Of a DNA stretch of 64,000 nt, positions 32,048-51,638 are shown one piece after another; within the stretch, counting starts at the first letter, position 1, and every line of letters begins with the position of its first letter. This DNA comes from a virus (lineage: Duplodnaviria > Caudoviricetes), in IMG/VR virus record IMGVR_UViG_3300032330_001742, positions 52,065 through 116,064 of that record. One strand, 5' to 3'. The position numbers and the translations under genes were made by a program. Below the pieces are notes generated by a model that worked only from the letters and a program-made list of their open reading frames with translations, was not told the origin of the DNA and made no database searches.

Positions 32048-32425
32048 ATGACTATGTGTGGACCTGAAATTTTTGGTGCTAACCCAGTAAAAATTAAATG
32101 GAATGTTGTTAGAGGAGACTCTGCGTCCTTGAGAGTAGAGTTTTTAGAAAATGATGAACAGACTCGTTTTTCTACATCTGGATGGACATATAAAGCAAGT
32201 GCGTATGATCCAAAAGGTGACACAATTGATGAATTAGAAGTTGTCTCACATAATGGATATATTGATATAAAAGCAACTCCAGAAATTACTCAGTATTGGG
32301 GTACTGGATATACAACACAGGTAGCAGAACTAACCTTTGATCTTGAAGTAACAATTGACGAAGTAACTTGGACACCAGTAATTGGAACTGTTCTTGTTTA
32401 TGGTGATATTTCGGGGTCACTATAA
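32048..32425 (+). CDS. Putative virion structural protein (baseplate/adaptor-like)
   Basis: W.VVRGD motif shared with 40909 and (YYKGD) 33258. Confidence 0.6.
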   Translation: MTMCGPEIFGANPVKIKWNVVRGDSASLRVEFLENDEQTRFSTSGWTYKASAYDPKGDTIDELEVVSHNGYIDIKATPEITQYWGTGYTTQVAELTFDLEVTIDEVTWTPVIGTVLVYGDISGSL

Positions 32426-34716: not shown

Positions 34717-34841
34717 TGGCTAAAGAAAAAACAACAGAAGAACAACTTCGTGAAAGCGGTATAGCAAAATTAATTTCTGCTACACAAATCACAGAAGCAG
34801 AGTTAAGAGCACTGGGGTTGACATCAAATGGCAGCAATTGA
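34716..34841 (+). CDS. Small tail-associated protein
   Basis: TAATG coupling; SGIAKL...TEAELRALG. Confidence 0.45.
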   Translation: MAKEKTTEEQLRESGIAKLISATQITEAELRALGLTSNGSN

Positions 34842-35457
34842 TAATAGCGGAAAAGTAGCATACATTTATAGTCAAGCAGATAATAAATGGTATTCAATTG
34901 CTGGAACAGTTAATCCAAATGCATCTTATACTTGGACAGCAAACCAACAGTTTTCAGCACCAGTAAATTTTGATATGGTAATTAATGCAAAAGCAGGCGT
35001 AAATAATTTTGCTAATCCAACAGCAAGAGATGCAGCACTTACATCTCCTACAAATGGTTTGGTTTGTTTTGTTAGACAAACAAACGCTGGATCAGTAATA
35101 AATCAAATTCAATATTACCACAATGGTGAGTGGAGATGGATAGGAGATTCAGCAGATCTCTCTTTAAAGACATCTAGTTTTACAATTACAAAAGATGATG
35201 CTGGGAAAACATTAAATGTTAGTTCTTCTTCAGACGTTGTAGTAACAATACCAGCAAATAGCACAACACCTTTTATTAATGGACAAAAAGTTGAAATTGT
35301 AAGAACTGGAACAGGTAATGTTTCCATTGAGGGCGCAGTTGGAGTTACAATAAATAGTAAGAATTCAAATAAGAAAATTTCTTCACAATATGTTGGTTGT
35401 GTATTAGTTAAAATAGATACAAATACCTGGTTGCTAATTGGCGATCTGACGGCGTAG
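34828..35457 (+). CDS. Tail fibre-like protein
   Basis: C-terminal domain (VTIP.N...Q.GTG.V...W.L.GDL) shared with 45120-46805. Confidence 0.7.
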   Translation: MAAIDNSGKVAYIYSQADNKWYSIAGTVNPNASYTWTANQQFSAPVNFDMVINAKAGVNNFANPTARDAALTSPTNGLVCFVRQTNAGSVINQIQYYHNGEWRWIGDSADLSLKTSSFTITKDDAGKTLNVSSSSDVVVTIPANSTTPFINGQKVEIVRTGTGNVSIEGAVGVTINSKNSNKKISSQYVGCVLVKIDTNTWLLIGDLTA

Positions 35458-35464
35458 GTAGAAG

Positions 35465-36976
35465 ATGCTAAATTTATTTCAATGGGCATCAAAAGGAATG
35501 GTAGCAGTACCAAATCTATCGACATTGACAATTACTCAAGCACAAACACTACTTACTTCTTTAGGTCTTGGTTTTATAAACTCTGGTTCTTCATCAACAT
35601 ATAATATTAATTTAGATACAACTATTGCAACACAATCAATTTCTGCAAACACCCTTGTTGATTATGGAACAAATATTAGTTTTACTTATTATGCATACGT
35701 AACTCCAGTTCCTACCCCAACTCCTACCCCTACACCTACACCAACGCCTACACCAACGCCTACACCAACGCCTACACCAACGCCTACACCAACCCCAACC
35801 CCTACACCAACTCCAACACCTACACCAAATGGTGTTGAATATTACATAGGAACATCTGCTTGTGCTGGAACAAGTGGGCTTTATTACAGTAGCCCATCAG
35901 TTTCTGGCCCATATTATTCCTCATCAATTCCATCAGATACAAGTTCTTATTCTAATGCAGTTGTAACAAAAACAGTTTATAGATCAACATCTGCAGCAGC
36001 ATTAGAGGCAGCAAAAAATGTTGCATGTGAAAATGTAACGCCTACTCCTACCCCAACTCCTACACCTACACCTACCCCAACACCTACCCCAACACCTACC
36101 CCAACCCCTACCCCAACCCCTACACCTTCACTTCCAACATGTCCAGGAACTCAAACAAAAGCAACATCTTATACATGTAATGAATTAGGTTTGGTATATC
36201 TTGGAGGACCATCGGACTATCAGGTTGGTGTTGGATATCAATGTTGTGGTGGCGCAATTCCTACCCCAACTCCAACGCCTACCCCTACACCTACACCAAC
36301 GCCTACACCAACTCCTACACCAACACCTACACCAACTCCTACACCAACACCTACCCCAACACCTACCCCAACACCTACACCATATTCATTTACAACAACA
36401 GTATATGGAATTAGATGTATTTCTGGTGACACATTTATTAGAGTTTTGCCAGGGGATGGAACTATAAATGTAGATGAAAATAATGGTGTTATTACACTAA
36501 AGGACAAAGATGGTAACACCGTTGCAAAACAGGCTAAAGATATAGTTATTGGTGATGAAATCATGACCACATCTTATTCTGAAATTGATCAAAACTCTCC
36601 AGATTACGAAATGTTCAATTGGAGTTCTGATTCTTTGACCTTTATAGAAAATGCTAAAACAACAATTGTTGATATTCAAGAAGATAATAAGAATCAGATT
36701 GCATACTTTAATAATGATCAATCAGCAAAATTTACACTAGAGCATCCAATTTTAGTTAATAGAAAAATTAATAACATTGATGATTGGAAATTCTTGATGG
36801 TTGCAGAAATTGAAGTAGGAGATATAATTGTTAAGTACGATTCAGAACTGGGAGTTTATAATAATGTGGTCATTGAATCAATTGACTTAATTCCATATGC
36901 AGAAACAGTTTATACATTTAGTGCTGAGCCAGTAGATTTAATTATTGCTGGAGATATCATTACTCACAATAAGTAG
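35465..36976 (+). CDS. PASTA-like + Pro-Thr repeat + C-terminal Hint domain protein
   Basis: VPNL...A...L...GL N-terminus; three (PT)n tracts; Hint from C318 (CISGDT) with FT.EHPIL and terminal HN. Confidence 0.85.
35701..36382 (+). repeat. Three coding (Pro-Thr)n tracts
   Basis: CCN-ACN hexamer repeats at about 35701-35828, 36035-36127, 36260-36382 with synonymous variation. Confidence 0.9.
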
Positions 36977-36981
36977 CGCAA

Positions 36982-37554
36982 ATGATTAAAGATCCTTATT
37001 TGATTCAAAATGTTTTATCTGACCAAGATTTATCAACACTATCTGACTACGCTTTCAAACTTTGGGAAACTGATAAAAGTACATACAATGAAGGTTTTGG
37101 TAGGCACCAATGGGCAATATGGGGAAATGATTTACCAGAAAAACTTCTTCCATTAAAATACATTCATACTAAATTGACAAAATTAGCAAAAAAAGAATTT
37201 GATTCAGAAACGCTTAAGCCTTCTTGGTGCCTGCTAAGTATTTATGAGGGTAAAGAGGCAAAACTTTGGAAGCATAAAGATGATAATGCTTGTACATATC
37301 ATATAAATTTAACTTTAATTTCTAAAACCCCTTGGGATTTTTATGTAGAAGGAGAAAAATTTACACCAGTCCCAAATGAAGCAGTTATTTCTTATGGAAA
37401 TGATCAAGAACACTGGAGAGAACAATTTCCAGATCCAGAAAATAATTTAGTTTGCAATGCATTCTTTTTTTATTGTGAGCCAGAGCATTGGTATTTTACA
37501 AAAGGACCTTCTTATTTATATACAGACATAAGAAAAGAAAAAACAAATGGATAA
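36982..37554 (+). CDS. 2OG-Fe(II) oxygenase
   Basis: L.KHKDDNACTY...W...G..QEHWR. Confidence 0.8.
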   Translation: MIKDPYLIQNVLSDQDLSTLSDYAFKLWETDKSTYNEGFGRHQWAIWGNDLPEKLLPLKYIHTKLTKLAKKEFDSETLKPSWCLLSIYEGKEAKLWKHKDDNACTYHINLTLISKTPWDFYVEGEKFTPVPNEAVISYGNDQEHWREQFPDPENNLVCNAFFFYCEPEHWYFTKGPSYLYTDIRKEKTNG

Positions 37555-38464
37555 AATTTTTATAAGTATTGCAGCCTATAGGGATCCAGATTTAGTAAAT
37601 ACAGTAAAAAGTTTTTATGACAATGCATATAATAGAGATAGTTTATTTTTTTCTTTAGTCTCTCATGAAGAAGAAGATAATATTTTAGATTTTAGTTTTT
37701 TACCAAAAAACCAATATTCTTATCAAAAAATTGATTATCGTTTAGCACAAGGAGTTTGTTCTGGAAGATATTTGGCAAACTCTTTGTTATCATCAGATTA
37801 TAAATATTTTATGCAAACAGATTCACATTCTAGAGTTATTAAAAACTGGGACCTAGAAGTAATCAAATGTTATATAAAATGTAAAAATAAATGGGGAAAT
37901 GATTTTTTATTTACTAAATACCCACACGGATTTAATTTTGATTGGAGCCTAGGTGACTATATAGCAGTTTTACCAGAAAATAATAACACTTTACACAAGG
38001 TTGTACCAGTATGGGATGATTTTGAAAGTTTATACTTACTTGAATGGAAGGAATTAGAAGATACAGAGTTTGGAGATTTAGTTTATGGCTTTGCTGCAAA
38101 CTGTGTATTTGGAAGTGCAGTTGCTATGTTAAAAATACCATATGATCCTTTTTTGTATTTTCATGGAGAAGAAATTACCTTGGGAGTTAGGGCTTATATA
38201 AACGATGTTCCCCTTGTATCGCCACCAATTAATTTTTTATACACAAATTATGATAGAGAAAATGGCAAAAGAAATTTTCACTGGGAAGATGATATAAGTT
38301 GGTCAATAAGGGATAAATATTCAAGAATTAGAATTAACAATATTTTTAAAAAGAAAAATTTGGGAATTTTTGGTTTAAATGATTTAAATAAATATGAAGA
38401 ACTTCAGAAAAATAGTGGAATAGATTTTGAAAATAAAACTCATATTAAAAATATTTATAGGTAA
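37547..38464 (+). CDS. GlcNAc-transferase, Gnt1/GT60-like
   Basis: IFISIAAYRDPDL, QTDSHSR...WD, PYDP.LYF.GEEI.L..R. Confidence 0.8.
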   Translation: MDKIFISIAAYRDPDLVNTVKSFYDNAYNRDSLFFSLVSHEEEDNILDFSFLPKNQYSYQKIDYRLAQGVCSGRYLANSLLSSDYKYFMQTDSHSRVIKNWDLEVIKCYIKCKNKWGNDFLFTKYPHGFNFDWSLGDYIAVLPENNNTLHKVVPVWDDFESLYLLEWKELEDTEFGDLVYGFAANCVFGSAVAMLKIPYDPFLYFHGEEITLGVRAYINDVPLVSPPINFLYTNYDRENGKRNFHWEDDISWSIRDKYSRIRINNIFKKKNLGIFGLNDLNKYEELQKNSGIDFENKTHIKNIYR

Positions 38465-38493
38465 ATATGCTATACTTTTTAAAAGGGGTAAGA

Positions 38494-38697
38494 ATGAACA
38501 AAAAAACAGTTAAGCCTTGGGATTTGCTAAATCCTAATAAGCCAAGATCTAATGATGAGATTGCAAAAGAAAGATATGACATTTGTAATTGGTGCCCAGA
38601 GTTTATTTCACTAACAAAACAATGTGCAAAATGTGGCTGTTTTATGCACCTTAAGGTAAAACTAGAAGAAGCAACATGTCCGTTAGGCAAATGGTAA
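38494..38697 (+). CDS. Small six-Cys protein, paralogue of 30577-30777
   Basis: RY.IC..C...C..CGCFM..K......CPLGKW. Confidence 0.75.
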   Translation: MNKKTVKPWDLLNPNKPRSNDEIAKERYDICNWCPEFISLTKQCAKCGCFMHLKVKLEEATCPLGKW

Positions 38698-38780
38698 TGA
38701 AATTATTTAATAGAATTATATTCAAGTATAAAGAATATAAAAAATATAAAAAAATAAAAAAGGGAACTTGGATATATTAA
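38697..38780 (+). CDS. Small Lys-rich peptide ending in WIY
   Basis: TAATG-coupled on both sides. Confidence 0.5.
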   Translation: MKLFNRIIFKYKEYKKYKKIKKGTWIY

Positions 38781-39727
38781 TGTTTTTTGATATATTTAAA
38801 CCTGGTATCGTACCTCATAATAGACCAAACAGTAATTATAGGTCTAGTGTTCTTGCTACTCATGCAGAGATAGAAAGATCAGAATACAACTATGACTGGA
38901 ATTCTGACGGTATAAGATCTATAGAGTTTTCAGAAAAACCACCAATCGTAACGCTTGGTTGCTCTATTACTCTTGGTCAAGGATTACCTATAGACTTAAT
39001 TTGGCCAGAAATGCTTGCTAAAAAAATCAATTTAAAAGTTGGAAATATATCATATAGTGGTGGATCTATTACTCAAATTATTTCAGGATTTTTTGGAATG
39101 ATTGCTCAATATAAATACAACCCAGAGTATGTAATTTGTAATTTTCCACCTTTTGATAGGTTTTATTTTATAAATGGCAAAGGTGATCAACTTAAAGACT
39201 ACAGGGCTGGTGTAAAAAAAAGAAAAACAAAGGATTCTGCGCCATGGGACTATGGTGCAACTATTCCATATGAATGGGCATATTACAGTAATTTGAATGC
39301 TTTGCAAATGCTTGAATCCTTCTGTGACTCAAATAATATTAAACTTATCTGGAGTACATGGTCAAATGCATTGTCTGAAGATCAAGAAGATTTTCTTATG
39401 GATAATTTTCAACACTATGTTAAAGACCCAGTAAGAAAAGAGTTTGCCCCACATTTTGAGTTCTGGGTTGATTCAAAAACGGTAGATGCGTTAGATGTTT
39501 TTTATAAAATGAAAAACTGGGATAAAGTTCAATGCCATACCAAAGAATTTATGATGCACAAAGAAATTTTTAATTATGCTTATGACTATCACAAAATAGG
39601 AGAAGCCCCAGATAAAGAGAAAGTTATTACTCGAACTCCTCATCCAGGGCTTCACAAGCATATTCATTACGTTGATTTTTATTATAACGAAATGTTAAAA
39701 AATGGTTTTAAAGAGGGAACTTCTTAA
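38780..39727 (+). CDS. SGNH/GDSL hydrolase-like protein
   Basis: WNSDGIRS.EF, TLGCSITLGQG, C-terminal HPG..H. Confidence 0.65.
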   Translation: MFFDIFKPGIVPHNRPNSNYRSSVLATHAEIERSEYNYDWNSDGIRSIEFSEKPPIVTLGCSITLGQGLPIDLIWPEMLAKKINLKVGNISYSGGSITQIISGFFGMIAQYKYNPEYVICNFPPFDRFYFINGKGDQLKDYRAGVKKRKTKDSAPWDYGATIPYEWAYYSNLNALQMLESFCDSNNIKLIWSTWSNALSEDQEDFLMDNFQHYVKDPVRKEFAPHFEFWVDSKTVDALDVFYKMKNWDKVQCHTKEFMMHKEIFNYAYDYHKIGEAPDKEKVITRTPHPGLHKHIHYVDFYYNEMLKNGFKEGTS

Positions 39728-40268
39728 TCCACATCTTTGTTTTAGCAGTAAGTCCATGCCAAGAGGACCAGTCCTGCCCACCGTTAGACATCCAGAACGC
39801 AACCTGTGCATTGATTACTGGATTGAAAAGATCTTGGTTATCACTAAGACCAAACTTTTTAATTCGGTCAGGACCAAGATCTCGGATCATATTAATTTGA
39901 AAGAGACCATATGATTTGTCTCCTGTTTTACCATTTTTGTTAAAAGCATATGGTCTACCATTACTTTCTTTTTTAGACACAGCCCAAGCCTCTTTTAGAT
40001 CTTTTCCTCTAAAACCAACTTGGTACAAAAGGTCTTTTAGTTCCTTGTCTGTCAATGAGTCATGACTAACATATTTTGTTAGTTTACTAAGATTTGCAGT
40101 TCTAGAAACCAAAAAAGCCCCAGAAGGGGCTATCACGGGCTGGACCTGTTCACTCTTAGTATTTGATGTAACTGTTACTGCATTAGCATTATTTGAAAAA
40201 ACGGCAAACATGCCAGTCACCGTAAGTATTCCAATGATTACTTGTTCTTTAAATTTCTCGTTCATCAT
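39708..40268 (-). CDS. Secreted lytic transglycosylase (lysozyme-like fold)
   Basis: Signal-like N-terminus, AV..KESNG, SYGLFQIN, LFNP..NA, W..W; SD AAGGAGG. Confidence 0.85.
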   Translation of the reverse strand: MMNEKFKEQVIIGILTVTGMFAVFSNNANAVTVTSNTKSEQVQPVIAPSGAFLVSRTANLSKLTKYVSHDSLTDKELKDLLYQVGFRGKDLKEAWAVSKKESNGRPYAFNKNGKTGDKSYGLFQINMIRDLGPDRIKKFGLSDNQDLFNPVINAQVAFWMSNGGQDWSSWHGLTAKTKMWIKKFPL

Positions 40269-40382
40269 AGTTTCCTCCTTAGAAAACAATAACACCTTGG
40301 TAGGTGTCTAGTATTAAGTATAACATAATTTTACCCACTTTTAACCTAAAAGTCAAGTTTTACCGTGGTATAATTATTTATT

Positions 40383-40889
40383 ATGGCAACAACTAATGAT
40401 GGATTGTTTAATTTACCTTTTCCAGAGTCAACTGATCCTGTTAATGTTCATGGTGATATAAAGGCTTTAGCAGATAGATTAAGGATTGTTTTACCACCAC
40501 TTGGAGTATCTGCTTTTCAACTTCCAGTAATAAATGATAGTGGACAAACCTTAAATGCTGGAACTCCAGTTTATGCAAAAGGTTTTACAACAAAAACAAC
40601 CATTGACAAATATTTGCCATCAAATACAAAACATGTTTTAGGATTACTTAAACAAGGATTAACAAATGGGTCCGAAGGTATTTGTATTGTTGCTGGAGTT
40701 CTAGAAGGTGTTAATACTTCTTCTTTTGCAAATGGAGATATTTTATATGCAGCCCCATCTGGTGGACTAACGGTAACACCTGACGGAGCAGCAGTTGGCA
40801 TTGTTGCCCATGCAGCATCTTCTGGAATTATTGTTGTGCAAGCAAAAGGCAACGGTACATGGGGAGCATTAAAGGCAGGGCTATCCTAA
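40383..40889 (+). CDS. Putative virion protein
   Basis: LPFP..TDPVNVHGDIKALA; structural context. Confidence 0.6.
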   Translation: MATTNDGLFNLPFPESTDPVNVHGDIKALADRLRIVLPPLGVSAFQLPVINDSGQTLNAGTPVYAKGFTTKTTIDKYLPSNTKHVLGLLKQGLTNGSEGICIVAGVLEGVNTSSFANGDILYAAPSGGLTVTPDGAAVGIVAHAASSGIIVVQAKGNGTWGALKAGLS

Positions 40890-40908
40890 TGAATGGTATA
40901 ATCTAATC

Positions 40909-41307
40909 ATGGCAACAACTCGTGGAGCAGCATCGTCTTATGATATTGGTAATAAACCACCTACAGTTATTTGGACAGTAGTTCGTGGTGATACTTCTGG
41001 TTTTAGAGTATATGCAACTGATGATGCAAAGCAACCATTAAATATTCCTGATTGGGATATATCCATGAAGTTTAAAAGACCAGTATTAAACCCTGGAGTT
41101 ATTTCAGATAATGCAACACTGGTTTTCACACTAACCCCAGCACCAGATGATGATGATCAAATTGGCGAGTTTACTGTATGGTTGACTGCAGCCCAATCTG
41201 CTCAACTTGAAACAGGAGACATTTTCGATATTCAGTTGTCTGACCCAACAAGAGTTTGGACTGTTGCTCAGGGCAGCATGAAGATTCTTGAAGATGTAAC
41301 AGATTAA
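40909..41307 (+). CDS. Putative virion structural protein
   Basis: WTVVRGDT; paralogue of 32048. Confidence 0.6.
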   Translation: MATTRGAASSYDIGNKPPTVIWTVVRGDTSGFRVYATDDAKQPLNIPDWDISMKFKRPVLNPGVISDNATLVFTLTPAPDDDDQIGEFTVWLTAAQSAQLETGDIFDIQLSDPTRVWTVAQGSMKILEDVTD

Positions 41308-41528
41308 TGGCAACAGCAGTAATTATTAATGACTTAAACAACTCAGTAAAGTTTATTGAGCCAAAAAACTATTCAGTAATAACAATTAAAGATCCCCAGC
41401 CTTCAGTAAAGATAGAAGAGATTCTTCCGTTTAGGATTAAATTTACAGCAGTTCAAATCCAAGATATTCGTGGTATGATTCCTGCAATTCCACTTCAGGT
41501 AATTGGCTATAGCAACTATATACTTTAA
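41307..41528 (+). CDS. Hypothetical protein
   Basis: Coupled ORF. Confidence 0.55.
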   Translation: MATAVIINDLNNSVKFIEPKNYSVITIKDPQPSVKIEEILPFRIKFTAVQIQDIRGMIPAIPLQVIGYSNYIL

Positions 41529-41562
41529 TTAAATTAGTTAAAATATATGTTATAATTACAAC

Positions 41563-42009
41563 ATGGCTAAAGTATCAATTGCATCAGTAAAGTCAAAATT
41601 CCAAACAGGTGACCGCCCAACACAGGCTGACTATGAGGATTTAATTGACACACTTGCAGGATCTGGATTTGATCTTGGATCTGCAGGTAATAATGAAAAC
41701 ACAATCAATGGAATTGAGAACCCAACGGTAATTGATAACTTTGATGCTACTGTTTGGCGTATGGTTAAGTATATGGTTTCTATCGCTAAAACATCAGCAG
41801 GGGACAATAAGTTCTATGCTACAGAATTAACAATTTTGGTTGATGGGCAAGATGTGTCTGTCAGCGAATATGGCACTATCGACAATGATGGGAATATTGG
41901 CACCATTAATGTCTCTCGCACTGGAAATACCGTGGCTTTAACAGTCACTCCAGATACTGCGATCAAGCCAGTCACTGTACGTTTTGCACGTATGGGACTT
42001 AAGGCATAA
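41563..42009 (+). CDS. Putative tail protein
   Basis: KFQTGDRPT..DY.DLIDT; SEYG domain shared with 42027 C-terminus. Confidence 0.65.
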   Translation: MAKVSIASVKSKFQTGDRPTQADYEDLIDTLAGSGFDLGSAGNNENTINGIENPTVIDNFDATVWRMVKYMVSIAKTSAGDNKFYATELTILVDGQDVSVSEYGTIDNDGNIGTINVSRTGNTVALTVTPDTAIKPVTVRFARMGLKA

Positions 42010-42026
42010 CTAAGGAGATATAAAAA

Positions 42027-43709
42027 ATGGCAACAGTAAACAAAGATTTTAAAATTAAGAGTGGTCTCGTCGTTGAAGGTACAACAGGTACAATCAACGG
42101 TTATGACATTCTTACAAAGAAGCAAAATGATCAAGATTATATTATTGGTCTTATTGGTGGAGCAGCAGATTCTGCAGCAACACCAGATACAGTAGTACTC
42201 CGTGATGGAGATGCTAACTTTGCTGCTAACAATGTTACAGTAAATGCACTCTATGTTGGTGGTTCAACTAATAATGGTATCGATGTTGTTGATGGAGATA
42301 CAGAAATTGGTTCTAATAATGGAATCGTTCTTACTGCATCAGGAGACATCGCACTTAACTCAGGCAATGGAGACATTGTTCTTAATCCAGATGGAAATTC
42401 ATACTTATGGACAAAGTCTAGTGGAAACCAGATTGCAACTCATGAATATGTAGATGGAGAAATTTCTTCTCTAGACACAGCAGCACAAGGCTATGCAGAT
42501 GCTGCAGAGACCGCTGCAAATGGCTATACAGACTCTGCAATTTCAACCGAAGTTACAAATCGTAACTCTGCAATTGCAACTGCAAAGGGTGAGGCTGAAG
42601 ATTATGCAGATACAGTTTCTGGAAATGCATATACAGATGCAACACAGTATACAGATTCTGCTATTACAAATCTTAATCTTTCTGGTACATACGATGCACT
42701 TGGTGCAGCAACTACAGCAGAAAATAATGCAAAGGCTTATACAGACCAGGAAGTTGCTGCTCTTGTAGATTCAGCACCAGCACTTCTTGACACACTTAAT
42801 GAGTTGGCTGCAGCAATTGCTGATAATCCAAATTATGCAACAGATGTTGCTAATCTTATTGCAGATAAGGCTGATACATCTTATGTAAACCAGGAACTAT
42901 CTGACCTAGATACAGCAGCACAGGGATATGCTTCAGCAGCAGATACTTCTGCTAGAGGATATGCAGATGGACTTATTTCAACAGAAGTTTCAGATCGCAA
43001 CTCAGCAATTTCTACAGCAATCACAAACCTTGATCTTGCTAATACATATGATGCAAAGGGTGCTGCTACAACAGCACAAAATAATGCTGCAACATATACA
43101 GATAACGCAATTAATGCACTCACAACATCTGATATTGAAGAAGGATCAAACCTTTACTTCACAGACTATGCTGCAAAGACATCAGCAGTTGATCTTTTGA
43201 CAAATGCTACAAAAAATAACATTGATATTACTTGGACTAACCAAGGTGGTCTTGTTATTACCGCAGAAAACGGTGTAGCAGATTCTACAACATCTGACCT
43301 TGCAGAAGGTTCACGCCTTTACTTTACAGATCAGAGAGCAGTAGATGCTCTCGAAGCAGTTGTTCCAAACTTCACAGCAGTTGAGTTGAACTCAGTTGCT
43401 AAGCAGGTTGCAGCAACTCTATCAGCACCAACAGCAGGAATTCAGGTAGCACATGCTTTCGCAAAGTCTGACTACCGTTCAGCAGAATACCTTGTAAAGG
43501 TTGCCTACGGAACACACACTGAAATCTCAAAGGTCCTTTTGACACTTGATTCTTCAGACAATATTGCAATTACTGAATACGGAATTGTTGGAACAAATGG
43601 CTCAGCGTCATCAATTTCAGCAGGTATCTTAGGATCAGATGTACAACTTCAGGTAACAACTGTCAACAATAACTCAACAGTTACTGTTGTCGGAACACTT
43701 GTTGCGTAA
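42027..43709 (+). CDS. Tail fibre protein
   Basis: KDFKIKSGL, APALLDTLNELAAAI, EGSNLYFT repeats. Confidence 0.8.
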   Translation: MATVNKDFKIKSGLVVEGTTGTINGYDILTKKQNDQDYIIGLIGGAADSAATPDTVVLRDGDANFAANNVTVNALYVGGSTNNGIDVVDGDTEIGSNNGIVLTASGDIALNSGNGDIVLNPDGNSYLWTKSSGNQIATHEYVDGEISSLDTAAQGYADAAETAANGYTDSAISTEVTNRNSAIATAKGEAEDYADTVSGNAYTDATQYTDSAITNLNLSGTYDALGAATTAENNAKAYTDQEVAALVDSAPALLDTLNELAAAIADNPNYATDVANLIADKADTSYVNQELSDLDTAAQGYASAADTSARGYADGLISTEVSDRNSAISTAITNLDLANTYDAKGAATTAQNNAATYTDNAINALTTSDIEEGSNLYFTDYAAKTSAVDLLTNATKNNIDITWTNQGGLVITAENGVADSTTSDLAEGSRLYFTDQRAVDALEAVVPNFTAVELNSVAKQVAATLSAPTAGIQVAHAFAKSDYRSAEYLVKVAYGTHTEISKVLLTLDSSDNIAITEYGIVGTNGSASSISAGILGSDVQLQVTTVNNNSTVTVVGTLVA

Positions 43710-43742
43710 TAAAAATAAAATAGTTGGAAGAGGGAGAAGTAA

Positions 43743-44201
43743 ATGACAACATCAGTGACAGTCGATAAAGACTTCAGAGTTAAGAATGGCTTAGTCGTAG
43801 CAAACGGCGGTTCATTCGGCGGAGCAGTTGAAGTAGGAACACCTACTATTAATACTCACGCAGCAACCAAGGAGTATGTCGATAATCGCTCAATGGCTGT
43901 CGGAGATACTGCTCCCTCTTCACCAACAAATGGTACACAATGGTTAGATACACTAACAAACAGAATTAACTTTTACTATGAAGGTTCTTGGTACACCCAA
44001 GCAACAATTGAAGATACACATAATATTCCAGATCACATCCACGATACCGCAATTGATGGCAATGGCCTTATTGTAAGTATGTTCGTAGATTCTGGATTTT
44101 TTGATAGTCCAATGACAGCCAGCACAGATTCTGGTAGCGCATTGGACACAGTTTTTACCTCAACCATAGATGGTGGAGTAGCAATAGATAATTTCAATTA
44201 A
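43743..44201 (+). CDS. Tail fibre-associated protein
   Basis: KDFRVKNGL, HAATKEYVD, P.SP.NG..WLD. Confidence 0.7.
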   Translation: MTTSVTVDKDFRVKNGLVVANGGSFGGAVEVGTPTINTHAATKEYVDNRSMAVGDTAPSSPTNGTQWLDTLTNRINFYYEGSWYTQATIEDTHNIPDHIHDTAIDGNGLIVSMFVDSGFFDSPMTASTDSGSALDTVFTSTIDGGVAIDNFN

Positions 44202-44255
44202 TAAATTGATGTTATAATAAGATACATATGGGCAGCACCCATGAGGAGGAAGTAA

Positions 44256-45062
44256 ATGGCAGTTAGACAACAGCAACGTAGAGGTACAGCCTCTCAATGG
44301 GCAACAGCAAACCCAATTCTTGCAGCAGCAGAAATCGGTTTTGAAGTTGATACAAATAAATTTAAGATTGGTGATGGAACAAATCGCTGGGAAGACCTTG
44401 TTTACTTTACCGCAGACGCTGCTCAGGCTATCCAAGACCTTCTTGATGGAGCACCTGGTGTTCTAGATACACTCAATGAACTTGCAGCATCACTTGGAGA
44501 TAATCCAGATTTCATTGGCACAATGACAACAAATCTTGCAGCAAAGGCTCCAATAGCATCACCAACATTTACAGGAACTGTATCTGGTGTAACTAAGGCA
44601 CATGTTGGACTAGGCAATGTTGACAATACATCAGATGCAAATAAGCCAGTTTCAACAGCAACACAGACTGCTCTTGATGCAAAGGCTTCAAACACTGCTC
44701 TTTCAAACCATGAAGCAGATACAACAAATATCCATGGAATCGCTGATACTTCAGCGCTTGCTACAAAGACTTATGCTGACGGAGCAGTAACAACTGCAGT
44801 AGCAGCACTAACAAAGTCTTCAGTAGGACTTGGAAATGTTGACAATACTTCAGATGGAAATAAGCCAATCTCAAGCGCTACACAAACAGCACTTGATGCA
44901 AAGGCACCAAAGAATAGTCCAGAATTTTCTGGTACACCAACAGCACCAACAGCAACTAATGTTACAAACAGCACACAGATTGCAACAACTGCATATGTAA
45001 GATCTGTTATTACAGATATTGCTTCATTTGATCTAGTTCTAGATGGTGGCGGTGTTGCATAA
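44256..45062 (+). CDS. Tail fibre protein with Mtd_N/hyaluronidase-N-like domain
   Basis: QRRGT...W...NP.L...EIG.E.DT..FKIGDG; VGLGNVDNTSD repeats. Confidence 0.8.
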   Translation: MAVRQQQRRGTASQWATANPILAAAEIGFEVDTNKFKIGDGTNRWEDLVYFTADAAQAIQDLLDGAPGVLDTLNELAASLGDNPDFIGTMTTNLAAKAPIASPTFTGTVSGVTKAHVGLGNVDNTSDANKPVSTATQTALDAKASNTALSNHEADTTNIHGIADTSALATKTYADGAVTTAVAALTKSSVGLGNVDNTSDGNKPISSATQTALDAKAPKNSPEFSGTPTAPTATNVTNSTQIATTAYVRSVITDIASFDLVLDGGGVA

Positions 45063-45119
45063 TGCAAAATTTAACACAAATTAGAAAGTCGTACGCAGCC
45101 CGTACAGAGGAGAGATAAC

Positions 45120-46805
45120 ATGACAACAAGAATGCAACAGCGTAGAGGAACCTCTACACAATGGACTACAACAGACCCAGTACTTGCTGCTGGTGAAATT
45201 GGAGTAGAAACAGACACAAACCAATTTAAACTTGGTGATGGCGTGTCAACATGGAGCGATCTCTCATACTTTAAGAATCTTGATGACCTTGGAGCATCTC
45301 TTGATGATTATGTTCCACTATCATCAAAGGCTGCTGCAAATGGTGTAGCATCACTTGATTCTACAGGAAATATTCCTGCATCACAACTTGGTAACATTAT
45401 CGATGGTGCACCTGCAGCATACGATACACTTAAGGAAATTTCAGATATTCTTGGAGACAACGGAAGTCTTTCAGGAAGTATAATCACACATATTTCTGGA
45501 GTAGAGTCTGGTCTAGCAACACACTCACAACTAGATACAAACGTTCACGGAATTGCTTCAACAGCAGCACTTGCAACTAAGACATATTCTGATACAGCAG
45601 CATCTACTGCAGTGTCAACACACAACTCAGCAACAACTTCTGTACACGGAATTGCTGATACTTCAGCACTTGCAACAAAAGCATATGCTGATGGCAAGGT
45701 GTCAACACACGAAGCAGATACAACAGATATTCACGGAATTGCAGATACTTCACTTCTTGCAACAAAGTCTTATGCAGATGGAAAGGCTTCAGATGCACAA
45801 ACAGCAGCAACTGGTGCAGCCACAACAGCAATTGGAACACACAATTCTGCAACAACTTCTGTGCATGGTATTTCAAATACTGCAAACCTTGTGTACACAT
45901 CTGACTCAAGACTTTCAGATACACGTACACCAACAGATTCAACTGTTACAGCAGCAAAGATTGCAGCAGATGCAGTTACAACTGCCAAGATCCTTGATGC
46001 AAATGTTACAACATCAAAGATTAATGATGGAGCAGTTACAACTGCTAAGGTTGCAGACTCTGCAATTACATCAGCAAAAATTGCAGATGCAACAATTGTA
46101 GATGGAGATATTTCTTCATCAGCAGCAATTGCAACATCTAAGATCTCAGGTCTTGATACAGCACTTAGCGCAAAGGCCCCATTGGCTTCACCAGCACTAA
46201 CTGGTACACCAACAGCACCTACTGCTTCTGCTGGTACAGCAACAACTCAGATTGCAACTACTGCATTCGTAGGAACAGCAGTATCAAACCTTGTAGCATC
46301 AGCACCAGCAGCGCTTGACACTCTTAATGAGTTAGCAACTGCTCTTGGAAATGATGCTTCATTCTCAACAACAGTTACAAATGCTCTCGCTGCAAAAGCA
46401 CCACTTGCTTCACCTACATTTACAGGTACAGTAACATTGCCAGCAGCAGGAATTGTTTTCTCTGACGGAACTCAGTCAAAGGAAGGCGTACCATCACGTA
46501 CACCAATTGTTTCAAAGACAGCATCTTACACACTTTCAGCACTTACAGAGCGTGACTCAGTAATTGAAGTTAACTCTGCATCTGCAGTAACAATTACAGT
46601 ACCTACAAACTCAACAATTGCTTATCCAGTCGGAACATCTATTGATATTCTTCAAACTGGAGCGGGACAGATTACTGTCGCAGGAGCATCAGGAGTTACA
46701 GTTAACGCAACACCAGGTTTGAAGTTAAGAACACAATGGTCAGGAGCAACTCTATTCAAGAGAGCAACAGATACATGGGTTCTTTACGGAGACTTGTCAG
46801 CATAA
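45120..46805 (+). CDS. Tail fibre protein with Mtd_N-like domain
   Basis: Same N-terminus; H...TT.VHGIADT and VT.AKI.D repeats. Confidence 0.8.
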   Translation: MTTRMQQRRGTSTQWTTTDPVLAAGEIGVETDTNQFKLGDGVSTWSDLSYFKNLDDLGASLDDYVPLSSKAAANGVASLDSTGNIPASQLGNIIDGAPAAYDTLKEISDILGDNGSLSGSIITHISGVESGLATHSQLDTNVHGIASTAALATKTYSDTAASTAVSTHNSATTSVHGIADTSALATKAYADGKVSTHEADTTDIHGIADTSLLATKSYADGKASDAQTAATGAATTAIGTHNSATTSVHGISNTANLVYTSDSRLSDTRTPTDSTVTAAKIAADAVTTAKILDANVTTSKINDGAVTTAKVADSAITSAKIADATIVDGDISSSAAIATSKISGLDTALSAKAPLASPALTGTPTAPTASAGTATTQIATTAFVGTAVSNLVASAPAALDTLNELATALGNDASFSTTVTNALAAKAPLASPTFTGTVTLPAAGIVFSDGTQSKEGVPSRTPIVSKTASYTLSALTERDSVIEVNSASAVTITVPTNSTIAYPVGTSIDILQTGAGQITVAGASGVTVNATPGLKLRTQWSGATLFKRATDTWVLYGDLSA

Positions 46806-46838
46806 TAAAATTCTATTAGGAATAGGGAGATATAAAAC

Positions 46839-48227
46839 ATGGCAGTAAATAAGAAAATTGGTGGTCACGCACAAGGTGCTAATGACTTTTTGGCACCTTA
46901 TGCACCAACTATTGGAACAGCAACCAACGTTCCATCTGGAAGAGCATTTAATAATGGACGGGCTGATGTAACATTTACACCTGACGCTATAAATGCAGCA
47001 ACATCCTTTACTGTTACATCTTCTCCTGGAGGTTATACAGGAACTGGATCAGCATCTCCTATTACTGTTACTGGTCTTCAATCTAATACATCTTATACAT
47101 TTACTGTAACTGGAGCAAATGCTGCAGGAACATCTGCTGCATCTGCTGCATCTAATAGCATAACTGCTACTACAGTTCCAGATACAGTTGCTACTCCTTC
47201 AGTATCTACAGCAGCATCTGGAGATGCGACGGTCCCTCAGGGAACTGCTAATACTGCAACAGATACAGTTTCATGGTCAGCACCAGCAAATGGTGGATCA
47301 GCAATCACAAACTACCACTGGACTTCGTCTGATGGAAAGTCTGGAGATACAGGTTCTACATCTATCACTGTTGCTCAAGAATCAGGAACAGGACAAACAT
47401 ATTCTGTTTATGCAACCAATACTAATGGAAATGGTGGAACTGGTACATCTGGTTCAATTACATCAGCATTCTCATTTACACCATTCTCAGTATTTGGATT
47501 CTCTCCGTTCTCAGTATTTGGATTCTCACCGTTTGGTGTATTCGGATTCTCACCATTTGGCTTCTCACCATTTGGAGTGTTTGGCTTCTCACCATTTGGA
47601 GTGTTTGGCTTCTCACCATTTGGATTCTCTCCATACGGATTCTCAACAACAGTATACGGAATTCGTTGTATTGATGGAGAAACATTTATTAGAGTTAAGT
47701 CAGGACAAGGAACAGAATCAGTTGATTCCGAAACTGGCAAGGTAACACTTAAAAACTCCGCAGGAGAAGTTGTTGCTAAAAAGGCTAAGGATATTGTTGT
47801 AGGAGATACAGTTCTGTCAGCAAGCATTACAGAAATTGATCCAGCATCACCAGACTACGAAGTATTTACATGGAAGTCAGATTCTTTAACATTTGTTGAA
47901 GATACTGAGACAACAATTGTAGATATTGAAGAACAGTCAAAGATTCAGGCTATTTATTTTAATGGAGATGAGTCCTCACAGTTTACTCTTGAGCACCCTA
48001 TCTTGGTTAAGAAAACAGTTGATGGCGTTTCAGAATATGCATTCTCAATGGTTGCAGAAATTGAAATTGGAAACTCAATTCTAAAGTATAATCCATCTAC
48101 TGACTCATACGATGAAACTGTTATTAACAGCATTGATATTAGTTCTGGAGAAAAGACAGTTTATACATTCAGCGCAGAGCCACACGATCTTATCATCGCT
48201 GGCGATATTATTACTCACAATAAGTAA
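46839..48227 (+). CDS. FN3 domains + FGFSP repeats + C-terminal Hint domain protein
   Basis: VTGL...TSYTFTV...N..G.S and WSAP.NGGS.IT.Y; F(G/S)FSP units; Hint from C277 (CIDGET) ending HN. Confidence 0.85.
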   Translation: MAVNKKIGGHAQGANDFLAPYAPTIGTATNVPSGRAFNNGRADVTFTPDAINAATSFTVTSSPGGYTGTGSASPITVTGLQSNTSYTFTVTGANAAGTSAASAASNSITATTVPDTVATPSVSTAASGDATVPQGTANTATDTVSWSAPANGGSAITNYHWTSSDGKSGDTGSTSITVAQESGTGQTYSVYATNTNGNGGTGTSGSITSAFSFTPFSVFGFSPFSVFGFSPFGVFGFSPFGFSPFGVFGFSPFGVFGFSPFGFSPYGFSTTVYGIRCIDGETFIRVKSGQGTESVDSETGKVTLKNSAGEVVAKKAKDIVVGDTVLSASITEIDPASPDYEVFTWKSDSLTFVEDTETTIVDIEEQSKIQAIYFNGDESSQFTLEHPILVKKTVDGVSEYAFSMVAEIEIGNSILKYNPSTDSYDETVINSIDISSGEKTVYTFSAEPHDLIIAGDIITHNK

Positions 48228-48232
48228 TAAAA

Positions 48233-48904
48233 ATGCGTGGAGATAAACATCCAAAAGCATCTGAATTTTGGCTAAGTACATATGCCATGTCGTTTGCTGA
48301 AATTGTAAACAAAAGCAACTGTAATAGAAACTTTGTTGAATATCAGTATGTGATTGGAAATCCAGATCTTTCTAATTCAATTATAAAACCAGTAAATGAC
48401 TATGCCTATAATCTTTATAAGGCTCCAGAACTAATTAAATATGAAGATGGTTATGTGTTTTTAAGACAAAAAACACATGCTGAAATATGGGTTAAAAGAG
48501 ATTATAAACAAGGTTTTTATTTTTTAGATCGCCCACACATTAGGCAGTTTTATACATCTGACACCATATTTAAAGCAGAAAATACATTCATGATGCCATA
48601 TAGATTTTATGTTCCTTGGTTTATTGATAATGGATCAGAGTTTGAAGTATTACAGGTAAATGATGAGTATTCTCCATTTGTTATAAAAGAAAACTTATAT
48701 GATCCAATTAATACCAACTCAACAATAATTGAGCCTGCTTTTGTTCATTTTTTATTTAAAAAAACTGGGGAGCACATGCTAAATCCAAGTCATGGTAAAA
48801 TTAGTATAGGAACTCCTATGTTTGATATAAAGATAAAGATGGATAAAAGAGAGTTTGTCCAACTAAATGATTTTTATAAAAAGTATAAGTTTTCTAAATT
48901 TTAA
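48233..48904 (+). CDS. Hypothetical protein
   Basis: 223-aa ORF; I..GTPMF motif shared with next two genes. Confidence 0.6.
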   Translation: MRGDKHPKASEFWLSTYAMSFAEIVNKSNCNRNFVEYQYVIGNPDLSNSIIKPVNDYAYNLYKAPELIKYEDGYVFLRQKTHAEIWVKRDYKQGFYFLDRPHIRQFYTSDTIFKAENTFMMPYRFYVPWFIDNGSEFEVLQVNDEYSPFVIKENLYDPINTNSTIIEPAFVHFLFKKTGEHMLNPSHGKISIGTPMFDIKIKMDKREFVQLNDFYKKYKFSKF

Positions 48905-48914
48905 AGGAGAAAAA

Positions 48915-49634
48915 GTGCCAATAATTGAATTTCATCCATGGAGTGATGATACAGAAGGTCTTATAGATAAGCCAACACCAACACATAGAAACGTACCAGA
49001 ATGGTACCGTAAACAACCTGCATATGTCAATAAAGATGAATTTTTGAAGAAGGGTGTTTCTGGATCTACAATTAAGAAGTGCATGCCAGTGTTTGATGCA
49101 ATGACTGCTGGATATACTTTATATTGCCCTGTTGATATATATGTTGACGCAACAAATCCTGCAAAACTTGAATATAATATTCCAGTAGCAGTTGCAGGCC
49201 TAAAGAAAGAACTATTTACTACACATTCTCCAGAACAAATTACTCACTATCCTATGTCACCAAATACACACAAAGATGTATTGAGAATTAATCCTATGTG
49301 GTCAATAAAAACTTCAGATGGCTACAGCACATTATTTACAAAGCCAATGCATCAAGAGCACTATCCTTTTGAAATTGTTCCTGGAGTAATAGATACAGAC
49401 TCTTACATGAGTGAAGGATTTTTATCTTTTAAAATTGATAATACTTTTAAGGGTATTATTGAAAAAGGAACTCCAATTGCACAGTTGATTCCATTTAAAA
49501 GAGAGTCTTGGGAAAGCAAGCATATCGATTACTCAGACTCTAAAACCTTTCAAAGAAAACAAAGAATGCTTATTCGTAGTAAATTCTTTAATTATTATAA
49601 AAAGAACTTTTGGCATAAAAAGGTATGGAATTGA
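48915..49634 (+). CDS. Beta-barrel protein (DUF6065-like)
   Basis: P.WYR...TIKKCMP..DAMTAGY...PG.IDTD...KGTP..Q.IPFKRE.W; GTG after AAGGAG. Confidence 0.65.
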   Translation: MPIIEFHPWSDDTEGLIDKPTPTHRNVPEWYRKQPAYVNKDEFLKKGVSGSTIKKCMPVFDAMTAGYTLYCPVDIYVDATNPAKLEYNIPVAVAGLKKELFTTHSPEQITHYPMSPNTHKDVLRINPMWSIKTSDGYSTLFTKPMHQEHYPFEIVPGVIDTDSYMSEGFLSFKIDNTFKGIIEKGTPIAQLIPFKRESWESKHIDYSDSKTFQRKQRMLIRSKFFNYYKKNFWHKKVWN

Positions 49635-50362
49635 TAAATAAAATAAAGTTTCATCCTACATCTTTAGAGATGTATGATAATTTTGATATATTGCATCCAG
49701 AGCCAGCAATTAAAAATATTCCAGAATGGTATAAAGATCTTGCACAGCACTATGATACCAATGACGTTGAGTTTTTAAACCCTGTAAATGATCGTGGAAC
49801 AGATGGTGCAAATGTTTCAACAAAAATGTGTTATCCTTTTAGAGATGCAATGACAGCGGGTTATGTATATAAACTTACTCAGGATATTCATGTATCTTTA
49901 GATCCAGATGGTAAGCCTCACCTTTCTTGGGAACTAGATAATTTAATGATGCTAGATAAAAGATATATTTTAGATATGGTTCCACCAGAAGGCTGTCATC
50001 CAGTTCATTTTGGCTTAAGAATGCATTGGTACTATGAGACGCCACCAGGCTACTCAGTGTTGATTACACACCCAATGAATCGCTATGACTTGCCATTTGT
50101 TATACCTTCTGGTATTATTGAATCAGATTTAATGGGAATTCCAGTATTTTTGTCATTATTTTTAAAGAAAAATTTTATTGGAACCATACCAAAAGGCACT
50201 CCAATGTTTCAAATTTTTCCTTTTAAGAGAGAAGACTGGGAAATGGAAGTTAGCCTAGATGCAAAAGAAATATTAAAAAAAGAGTATGAGTTAGAAAATA
50301 GAAGAACTAGGCTTTTTGCATATTATAAAAAATTTGCATGGAGAAAGAAAAATTACCTATAG
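49625..50362 (+). CDS. Paralogue of 48915-49634
   Basis: PEWYK...KMC.PF.DAMTAGY...TPPGYS...KGTP..Q.FPFKRE.W. Confidence 0.65.
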   Translation: MELINKIKFHPTSLEMYDNFDILHPEPAIKNIPEWYKDLAQHYDTNDVEFLNPVNDRGTDGANVSTKMCYPFRDAMTAGYVYKLTQDIHVSLDPDGKPHLSWELDNLMMLDKRYILDMVPPEGCHPVHFGLRMHWYYETPPGYSVLITHPMNRYDLPFVIPSGIIESDLMGIPVFLSLFLKKNFIGTIPKGTPMFQIFPFKREDWEMEVSLDAKEILKKEYELENRRTRLFAYYKKFAWRKKNYL

Positions 50363-50391
50363 TGTATAATAGAAAGAAAAAGGGAGCAGTT

Positions 50392-51015
50392 ATGAAAGAC
50401 CATAAATTCTTTGAAAGAATGCTAGACACAGATACAGATCGTCTTGCATTTTATTTAAGCAGACAATATGAAAATATTCAAAATTTAACTTTGCCAGGTA
50501 TTAAAGAAGTGGGCAAACAAGAAATTTGGACAGAGTCTGGAAGTTTATCTACAGTAAAATGGAGAGAGTATAACGTCTTTCAGTTTTTAAATCCAGATAT
50601 TCATAAGTTGTATAAAACTCTTGCAGAAGTAATGCGTGAAGCGTGTGACTACTATGAGATTAACTTTGACGAACAAGAATATATGGTTCAAGGCTGGTTT
50701 AATATTAATCACAAGAAGGCTGGCAAATTAGACTGGCATGACCATGGTGGTCCATATGCCCCACATTTTCATGGATACTATTGTGTTAAGGCTGAGCCAT
50801 CTACAACTCATTACAGACTATTTGGTGATCCAAACAGAGAAGTTGAAAACAAAAACATTGATAATAGAATGATTGTGTCTGAAATGGGTCATCCACATGC
50901 ACAAGCAGACTGGGATTGGGAAGGTCCAAGAATTACAATCGCATATGATATTGTTCCTCTTAAATCTCTTGCACAAGCACGTCAATCAGAACAGCATTGG
51001 ATTCCATTATGCTAA
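50392..51015 (+). CDS. 2OG-Fe(II) oxygenase-like protein
   Basis: GWFN..., WHDH, FHGYYCV.AEPS, GHPH, RITIAYD. Confidence 0.7.
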   Translation: MKDHKFFERMLDTDTDRLAFYLSRQYENIQNLTLPGIKEVGKQEIWTESGSLSTVKWREYNVFQFLNPDIHKLYKTLAEVMREACDYYEINFDEQEYMVQGWFNINHKKAGKLDWHDHGGPYAPHFHGYYCVKAEPSTTHYRLFGDPNREVENKNIDNRMIVSEMGHPHAQADWDWEGPRITIAYDIVPLKSLAQARQSEQHWIPLC

Positions 51016-51638
51016 AAGAACATAAATTTTTTGATAGGTTCTTGCAAAATGATCTAGTTTCTTTATCAAAATTTTTGCAAGAAAAAATGCATGGTTTTGA
51101 AAATGGAACAATTCCAAACGTAACTAAAGAAGATTTTGATTCTTTAGATAATAGATCTCCAGCAACTAATTTGGGTCCAAAATACAATATATTTCAGTTC
51201 CATGATGAATCTATTTTTAATATTTACCGTGCAGTTTCAGAAATGACAAAAGAAGCCTGTGAGTATTATGGCGTTAACTTTAATGATCAGTACTATATGA
51301 TTCAAGGTTGGTTTAATTTTGACAAATATGAAAAGCCAGATCCTCTGCCAGATGATTTCTTGCATGACCACCTTGGAGGAGAGGGTGCTCCAGATTTTCA
51401 CGGTTACTATTGTGTAAATGCAGAACCATCCAATACATATTATAAGATAGGTGGCATTGACGGGGTAAGGTTTACAAATGTAAATAGAAACAACCGTGCA
51501 GTGTTATCAGAAACAGGACATCCACACGGAATTCAAAGTTGGACACAAGATCATTTTAGAATTACTATTGCGTACGATGTAACTCCACTTAGTAAAATTA
51601 GAACAGCACAGGAGCAACATTGGATACCACTAATATAA
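51009..51638 (+). CDS. 2OG-Fe(II) oxygenase-like protein (paralogue)
   Basis: HDH, FHGYYCVNAEPS, GHPH, RITIAYD. Confidence 0.7.
   Translation: MLKEHKFFDRFLQNDLVSLSKFLQEKMHGFENGTIPNVTKEDFDSLDNRSPATNLGPKYNIFQFHDESIFNIYRAVSEMTKEACEYYGVNFNDQYYMIQGWFNFDKYEKPDPLPDDFLHDHLGGEGAPDFHGYYCVNAEPSNTYYKIGGIDGVRFTNVNRNNRAVLSETGHPHGIQSWTQDHFRITIAYDVTPLSKIRTAQEQHWIPLI

Follow-up and report, generated by a model that had tools for sequence, protein, structure and literature searches.

Two genes of a phage tail-fibre region end in the same predicted domain

The virus record IMGVR_UViG_3300032330_001742 (Caudoviricetes) is 116,064 bp long and is rated complete by CheckV. We analysed its last 64 kb (hereafter the window), in which two genes, encoding the proteins P0001 and P0002, both end in a predicted Hint domain. 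Here we describe the two proteins and the phage-wide family of their C-terminal domain, and we set out why this domain is probably a pro-domain that removes itself. Both genes sit in the tail-fibre region, with further fibre genes between them and with the portal and prohead protease genes downstream; the features of the two genes are collected in Table 1.

When compared by BLASTP, P0001 and P0002 aligned over their last 199 residues only (59% identity, no gaps, E 1e-83), with nothing significant outside this segment. In both proteins the segment has a Cys at its start, a TLEHP motif and a DIITHN-K terminus directly followed by the stop (TAG in gene 1, TAA TAA in gene 2), just as the initial annotation, which described two homologous terminal Hint segments, had read from the letters; the domain boundaries that it gave turned out to be exactly right when the structures were aligned. 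Its second observation, that of a near-identical 12-residue junction before the Cys, holds as well: 10 of the 12 residues are identical (PYGFSTTVYGIR in gene 2) despite N-terminal parts that are unrelated, as judged from Pfam, P0001 carrying a PASTA domain and long Pro-Thr runs, and P0002 fn3 domains and FSPFG(V)FG repeats. Note that the Hint segment is not quite all that the two proteins share, since a proline-containing low-complexity repeat directly before the junction is a layout common to both. The whole 116-kb record contains exactly two copies of the Hint segment.

Table 1. Positions in the window of the two Hint-bearing genes, their parts and the fibre genes that precede them
Feature	Position	Strand	Remarks
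Fibre-like gene directly upstream of gene 1	34828..35457	+	last ~100 residues homologous to the end of the fibre before gene 2
Gene 1 (P0001, 503 residues)	35465..36976	+	PASTA, Pro-Thr repeats with Cys-rich inserts, junction, Hint, Lys, stop
PASTA domain (P0001 residues 13-74)	35501..35686	+	Pfam PF03793, 24.5 bits against a cutoff of 23.2
Conserved junction of gene 1 (residues -12 to -1)	36380..36415	+	
Hint domain 1 (Cys318 to Asn502)	36416..36970	+	Thr424/His427 (TLEHP) 36734-36745; His501-Asn502 36965-36970
Lys503 (+1 residue) and TAG stop	36971..36976	+	
Tail fibre (Mtd_N start) directly upstream of gene 2	45120..46805	+	synteny conserved in related phages
Gene 2 (P0002, 462 residues)	46839..48227	+	two Fn3, FSPFG(V)FG repeats, junction, Hint, Lys, double stop
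Two Fn3-like beta-sandwich domains (P0002 residues ~40-205)	46956..47453	+	Pfam fn3 E 1.2e-7; ordered strands in the full-length model
Aromatic/proline FSPFG(V)FG repeat region (P0002 residues 211-275)	47469..47663	+	predicted disordered, pLDDT ~30
Conserved junction of gene 2, PYGFSTTVYGIR	47631..47666	+	residues -4 to -1 modelled as a beta-strand continuous with Hint
Hint domain 2 (Cys277 to Asn461)	47667..48221	+	Thr383/His386 47985-47996; Asp450 (conserved) 48186-48188; His460-Asn461 48216-48221
Lys462 (+1 residue) and TAA TAA	48222..48230	+	

At the DNA level the two Hint segments are only 66% identical (53% at third codon positions), and synonymous differences occur inside the junction itself (its Arg is encoded by AGA in one copy and by CGT in the other), which argues that the similarity was selected at the protein level and does not stem from a recent copy. 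In a maximum-likelihood tree, the PASTA-type Hint domains of different phages form one clade that includes P0001 (support 90/87), while that of P0002 falls with the Fn3-type domains. As judged from these comparisons, the two copies are old paralogues; a recent duplication or a gene conversion behind the near-identical junction was ruled out by the codon differences and the tree clades. A related contig (L004, L009) also holds both genes, likewise about 11 kb apart.

The C-terminal domain is predicted to adopt the Hint fold

It is the fold comparison rather than any sequence search that settled the identity of the domain, since the sequence methods alone gave weak results: the two window proteins scored 17.6 and 13.6 bits with the Pfam family Intein_splicing, below its cutoff of 35.8, the matches to Hint_2 were sub-threshold too, no PHROGs family covered the Hint part, and sequence searches of the PDB, with a single sequence and with a profile, returned only the mini-inteins of Pyrococcus PolII at marginal E values (0.007-0.13). 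By contrast, an AlphaFold2 model of the domain, built from a 12-sequence domain alignment, reached a mean predicted local distance difference test (pLDDT) score of 85 and a predicted template modelling (pTM) score of 0.81, and the significant matches that Foldseek found for it among PDB structures are Hint domains without exception: first the BIL (bacterial intein-like) domain of C. thermocellum (2lwy, E 8e-6), then BIL2 of Tetrahymena, Hedgehog and a large number of mini-inteins. Structural alignment of the model with the Mtu RecA mini-intein and with Hedgehog by VIA-align gave Z scores of 16.4-16.0, with root-mean-square deviations (rmsd) of 2.1-2.4 Å over 134-139 residues (top score: Z 16.4, rmsd 2.1 Å, 134 residues). 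As judged from these models, the C-terminal domain of both proteins has the horseshoe-like, all-beta Hint fold. The initial annotation had named this fold beforehand as one of two points on which its reading could fail.

The superposition also places the putative catalytic residues. The Cys at model residue 13 falls on residue 1 of the intein and on Cys258 of Hedgehog, and the Asn at model residue 197 falls on the last residue of the intein. The thioester set (Cys1 and Thr-x-x-His) and the Asn-cyclisation pair (His-Asn) are both invariant in the near relatives. Asp450 of P0002, placed by eye, lies nearer to the position of the intein block F His, and we do not claim its equivalence to the block F Asp.

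Upstream of the Cys, residues -4 to -1 of the junction (YGIR) are modelled as a strand that runs on into the Hint domain; residues -12 to -5 are conserved, yet modelled with low confidence (pLDDT 42). The full-length model of P0002 comprises two ordered Fn3-like sandwiches, disordered repeats (residues 211-275, pLDDT ~30) and the ordered Hint domain.

A large phage family shares a lysine-bearing tail

Close relatives were collected by a word-based search, and the wider family by an exhaustive profile search of 1.84 billion representatives (50% identity). The former yielded 44 proteins, all of them metagenomic 'hypothetical proteins', which cover both architectures and all end in THNK-stop; Cys1, Thr-x-Glu-His-Pro and His-Asn-Lys are invariant in the aligned relatives (sets of 23 and 12). 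The profile search retrieved 220 representatives at E<=1e-3 (106 at E<=1e-10), and across these 220 the Hint match lies at the extreme C-terminus. The domain is 155-185 residues long in the family and is almost always preceded by an aromatic/proline or Pro-Thr low-complexity repeat (FSPFG, FFPPS, PTPT, PIIAT, YSFTP), while the N-terminal partners are diverse: fn3, PASTA, Flg_new (Listeria-Bacteroides repeats), Laminin_G_3 and DUF642. Every one of the 112 family sequences inspected has Cys1 (in four of them the regular expression missed it, but it is visible on reading the sequence), and a Ser/Thr is found in block B of 81 out of 81; the block B His position is occupied in distant members by His (43 sequences), Gln (27) or Glu (10).

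The distant members are located in phage-like contigs, and the ESM-Atlas neighbours are nearly all Uroviricota clusters. The best matches in BFVD are proteins of uncultured Caudovirales auto-named 'Fibronectin type III', 'Hint domain containing protein' or 'PASTA_pknB domain containing protein', and automatic annotation in UniProt already labels some family members 'Hint domain containing protein'. Isolated phages gave no match when the region (megablast) and the domain (tblastn) were searched against 50,697 phage records. Four distant members (P0049, P0050, P0058 and P0087) begin with short Trp/Lys-rich repeats of the G.WK....W.VKVNG.WK type, followed by proline repeats and the Hint domain; these N-terminal repeats may bind the cell wall.

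The most regular trait outside the domain itself is what follows the terminal His-Asn. Among 114 representatives ending in this pair, the tail is 1-19 residues long and contains Lys in every case, against a background Lys frequency of 5.9%. The Lys stands at +1 in 56 tails (47 of which consist of Lys-stop alone) and at +2 in 49, i.e. at one or the other position in 105; Cys, Ser or Thr occupies +1 in just five. The Lys after Asn is thus a hallmark of the family and not a leftover; this trait is the most telling one, and its meaning had escaped the initial annotation. Its claim that there is no usable C-extein stands: in both window proteins only one Lys follows the Asn, and no Cys, Ser or Thr stands at +1. 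Canonical splicing of two protein parts is impossible for this reason.

Position 1 and the C-terminal residues vary together

We counted the combinations of active-site residues in 204 distinct Hint domains. In 140 of them, Cys1 goes with His-Asn at the end of the domain and with Lys at +1 or +2; four others differ only in a slightly later Lys. In another 33, Ser or Thr at position 1 (block A context S-[ILV]-x-x-x-T) goes with a terminal x-Asp followed by Gly or Arg, without Lys. Mixed forms between these two states were not seen among the 204 domains. As far as co-variation can tell, this pattern shows that position 1 is always occupied by a nucleophile, with which the C-terminal residues form one functional unit. 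The second state is found where the same Fn3/repeat protein carries a sister form of the domain, one with Ser1, a terminal Phe/Tyr/His/Lys-Asp, then Gly or Arg, and no Lys tail (P0200, P0206, P0223 and P0288; loci L019, L021-L023, L029-L031 and L045-L049).

Some orthologues lack the Hint domain

The Fn3 N-terminal half of P0002, used as sole query, retrieved orthologues that are 50-90% identical and of three kinds, namely with the His-Asn-Lys Hint domain, with the variant Hint domain and with no Hint domain at all. Proteins of the third kind stop right after the FSPFG repeats, with no more than a short tail added (...PGGPTFSAAY and ...FAPFTAWT are examples). Two of them occupy the same syntenic site as gene 2, after an Mtd_N fibre gene and before those for ribonucleotide reductase and the portal (L016:10001-11149 on a 118-kb phage contig and L017:10001-11116 on a 98-kb phage contig). 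Across 80 viral loci (not de-replicated), we counted 75 complete orthologues, 40 of them with a Hint domain and at least 15 with the repeats as their C-terminus; altogether, this protein family has many alternative C-termini. The Hint domain on the Fn3 protein is thus facultative. No Hint-less orthologue of the PASTA type was found, both searches having reached only close Hint-bearing relatives.

The tails of the Hint-less proteins (F-S/T-A-A-Y/F) look like the N-extein ends of many Hint-bearing forms (FSPAAYGIK|C). This resemblance between low-complexity sequences, which can be suggestive only, raises the possibility that part of the conserved junction is in fact a conserved C-terminal tail of the appendage itself.

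Genomic neighbourhood of the two genes

Each Hint gene directly follows a fibre gene (Table 1), and the two fibres share a C-terminal domain of about 100 residues that ends in ...W.L.GDL[ST]A. The region thus contains two parallel modules, each consisting of a fibre and a Hint protein, which are kept in related contigs; its gene order is conserved in ten related viral contigs, and its portal is 46% identical to those of Streptomyces phages. In the same region, six genes (starting at 32048, 33258, 34291, 40383, 40909 and 41563) start immediately downstream of a TATAAT box, too close to it for a ribosome-binding site to fit in between, and by this arrangement resemble leaderless transcripts of the actinobacterial kind.

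After gene 1 come, within 36982-38464, an open reading frame (ORF) of 190 codons (36982-37554; PHROG 2954, labelled 'ferrochelatase', with no Pfam match) and a Gnt1-type N-acetylglucosamine (GlcNAc) transferase gene (PF11397, E 2e-33). At locus L013 a homologue of the 190-residue product (40% identity) and a 2-oxoglutarate (2OG)-Fe(II) oxygenase of family PF13640 follow a very distant Hint protein, and PF13640 genes flank the distant Hint protein P0049. These occurrences point to a recurrent link, at the level of gene content, of proline-repeat Hint proteins with prolyl-hydroxylase-like and glycosylation genes.

Downstream of gene 2, positions 48867-50362 encode two tandem paralogues (PHROG 7084; weak DUF6065 matches). 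Together with the gene at 48233-48904, they had seemed specific to Hint-bearing loci in a set of seven, a notion that we rejected because among the 80 loci they also accompany Hint-less proteins and are absent from some Hint-bearing ones. Sequence searches of the PDB with the 48233-48904 product, the DUF6065-like paralogues and the product of ORF 36982-37554 gave no informative match. Further on lie three paralogous genes for proteins of about 215 residues (50338-51015, 50997-51638 and 52486-53139), in the midst of which ORF 51620-52489 is weakly GlcNAc-transferase-like; the Hint-less orthologues of L016 and L017 are followed by only two of these three paralogues. Between the ribonucleotide reductase and portal genes, an ORF of 1,254 codons (55805-59569) has no PHROG match and has counterparts of 1,185-1,225 residues at the same place in L016 and L017.

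A probable self-removing pro-domain and the alternatives to it

We propose that each protein is an appendage- or adhesin-type phage protein in which a PASTA or Fn3 domain serves for binding, a disordered proline-containing repeat acts as linker and the Hint domain is a pro-domain that removes itself. Cys1 would attack the Arg-Cys peptide bond by an N-S acyl shift, giving a thioester, and cyclisation of the Asn of the His-Asn pair would break the Asn-Lys bond. The thioester would then be resolved by water or by the amine of the invariant Lys, the latter as in the isopeptide reaction of Tetrahymena BIL2 or the amine route of A-type BILs. By either route the Hint domain, of about 20 kDa, would leave, and the mature protein would end in ...TTVYGIR, with or without a lysine cap, and would resemble the natural Hint-less orthologues. 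Removal of the domain at Arg|Cys in the manner of a type A BIL is, on balance, the function that we regard as probable, given the predicted fold and the conserved residues.

That the Asn-Lys bond is also cut, and that the Lys amine may capture the thioester, is suggested by the conservation of His-Asn-Lys together with the precedents of A-type BILs, which keep His-Asn and in which the C-terminal junction is cleaved without a +1 nucleophile (PMC7765530), and of Tetrahymena BIL2, in which the thioester is resolved by a Lys epsilon-amine with formation of an isopeptide bond to the C-terminus (PMC8616854). Because the Lys is invariant, resolution by the amine of the tail Lys appears more likely than resolution by water; simple hydrolysis of the thioester is nevertheless fully possible.

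Four points weigh against self-removal. The autocleavage is deduced entirely from sequence and a predicted model. In about 45% of the distant members, Gln or Glu takes the place of the block B His, although both window proteins have His. The two active-site states may reflect just two clades, and hence a single evolutionary event. Finally, pure self-removal would bring no evident benefit, as the Hint-less orthologues seemingly manage without the domain.

A further-reaching version of the reaction is lysine-directed ligation in general, whether the acceptor is the tail of the protein itself or a partner. Here the Cys1 thioester would be captured by the epsilon-amine of the tail Lys, or by a partner lysine or a cell-wall amine, after which cyclisation of the Asn would free the Hint domain. 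We hold such ligation to be a serious candidate, albeit one with the odds against it.

External coupling proper, in which the appendage would be covalently anchored, in the style of Hedgehog or BUBL, by attack on the Arg-Cys thioester from a lysine of a virion protein (for example the fibre encoded upstream) or from a host cell-wall amine, is unlikely in our estimation. The thioester chemistry is intact, and BIL2 passes its N-extein to lysines of other proteins (PMC8616854). The position of each Hint gene directly after a fibre gene makes the shared C-terminal domain of the fibres a candidate common partner, peptidoglycan is a target to which the PASTA domain of gene 1 points, and the fold offers no explanation for the conservation of residues -12 to -5. 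However, no acceptor was identified, and no neighbouring protein has a Cys, Ser or Thr after its Met that would suggest trans-ligation; a transfer of the Hedgehog type would need neither the invariant His-Asn nor the tail Lys, and no adduct-recognition region follows the Hint domain. Moreover, coupling via the Hint domain cannot be essential to the appendage, since close Fn3 orthologues at the same site, which evidently work uncoupled, have none. The initial annotation had proposed a shared autoprocessing tag that cleaves, or couples to a common partner. A shared autoprocessing module is what the fold, the invariant catalytic set and the lack of a C-extein and of a +1 nucleophile most naturally suggest; nothing found here points to a common partner or external acceptor.

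It is still less probable that the Hint domain is a permanent, non-cleaving structural or binding tip whose catalytic-looking residues are kept for stability. Fibre tips are commonly exchanged modules, a description that suits the varied C-termini of the Fn3 proteins, and the block B His is variable in distant members; but a nucleophile, Cys or Ser/Thr, is universal at position 1, the choice between terminal Asn and Asp is tied to its type, and the Lys tail would be hard to explain for a mere binding domain. A selfish mini-intein, or a decaying remnant of one, that had come to lie at the 3' end of each of the two genes is excluded in practice: the intein-like motifs and the weak matches to Pyrococcus PolII mini-inteins are outweighed by the lack of a C-extein, of a +1 nucleophile and of a homing endonuclease, by the terminal position across the 220 representatives, by strong purifying selection in two old paralogue clades and by a location behind low-complexity repeats instead of at a conserved site of an essential protein. 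Trans-splicing or readthrough was ruled out by the next ORF being in another frame, by the double stop and by the N-termini of the neighbouring proteins.

What self-removal would mean for these phages

Inteins, Hedgehog, bacterial BILs and polymorphic toxins are the known settings of Hint domains. Full-text searching of one library of papers found none on phage appendage proteins with a C-terminal Hint domain. What appears to be new is the strictly terminal position in proteins of phage fibre modules, the Lys-bearing mini-tail, the association with aromatic/proline repeats and the Ser1/x-Asp form; a large, phage-wide Hint family caps fibre-module proteins. If the domain only cleaves, it would provide a second, chemically unrelated route to self-removing C-terminal fibre domains, beside the chaperones of the endosialidase type. 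If the Lys is the nucleophile, it would amount to a natural, enzyme-free isopeptide-forming tag, of interest for protein-ligation technology as well as for the way in which virions are assembled and kept stable. Lysine-directed ligation would leave the appendage with an isopeptide-capped or covalently anchored C-terminus, made without ATP or an enzyme, which to our knowledge would be a new post-translational chemistry for virions. The proline-repeat linkers and the nearby 2OG-oxygenase and GlcNAc-transferase genes point, in addition, to heavily modified, mucin-like appendages in abundant lake phages.

Comparison with known systems

Self-cleaving C-terminal intramolecular chaperone domains are known from phage tailspikes and fibres (endosialidase/K1F type, T5 pb1). 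They follow the same logic as that proposed here, a C-terminal domain removing itself after its job, with an unrelated fold and a Ser-Lys dyad peptidase in place of the Hint acyl shift. The PT-HINT domains of polymorphic toxins likewise perform Hint autoprocessing in secreted or surface multidomain proteins, and ESM-Atlas neighbours of the phage domain often carry PF07591, for which the window proteins gave no match at E<=1; PT-HINT, however, precedes and releases a toxin domain, whereas nothing follows the phage domain.

With canonical class 1 inteins the phage domain shares the terminal His-Asn (block G), its Asn aligning to the last intein residue, but it is not inserted in a host protein, has no C-extein and has Lys at +1. 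The Hog domain of Hedgehog (1at0, 6tyy; Z 16.1, rmsd 2.3-2.4 Å, 139 residues) is likewise a C-terminal Hint domain; by way of a Cys1 thioester it releases the extracellular-type protein that precedes it. Hedgehog-type Hint domains carry out the N-terminal reaction only and have no terminal His-Asn. The phage domain, by contrast, has this pair, which plays no role in Hedgehog, has Arg or Lys rather than Gly at position -1, and lacks a sterol- or adduct-recognition region, the window proteins ending one residue after Hint.

The BIL2 domain of Tetrahymena BUBL1 (6tmm, 6y75; Z 15.4-15.6) has the same Hint fold, and its Lys-resolved thioester is the chemistry suggested here for the phage tail Lys (PMC8616854). 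BIL2 lies between two ubiquitin-like domains and conjugates one of them to the other or to other proteins, whereas the phage domain has only a short Lys-bearing tail with which a lysine reaction would take place.

Type A BILs, to which the best Foldseek match belongs (2lwy, Z 15.6), have the same Hint fold, Cys1 and C-terminal His-Asn without a Cys, Ser or Thr at +1; they too are found not in conserved enzymes but in surface-type proteins that are variable and non-conserved, and as with them, autocleavage of the phage domain is expected at one or both ends. The phage domain differs in always being at the extreme C-terminus, with a tail of 1-19 residues. We know of no description, for BILs, of a Lys at +1 or +2 or of a preceding aromatic/proline repeat. 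The type A features are given here after Amitai 2003 and Dassa 2004 to the extent that PMC7765530 summarises them. Among these systems, the type A BIL is the closest to the phage Hint module, the two being likened by their Cys1/His-Asn layout and by their fold, and not by the sequence blocks of Amitai 2003.

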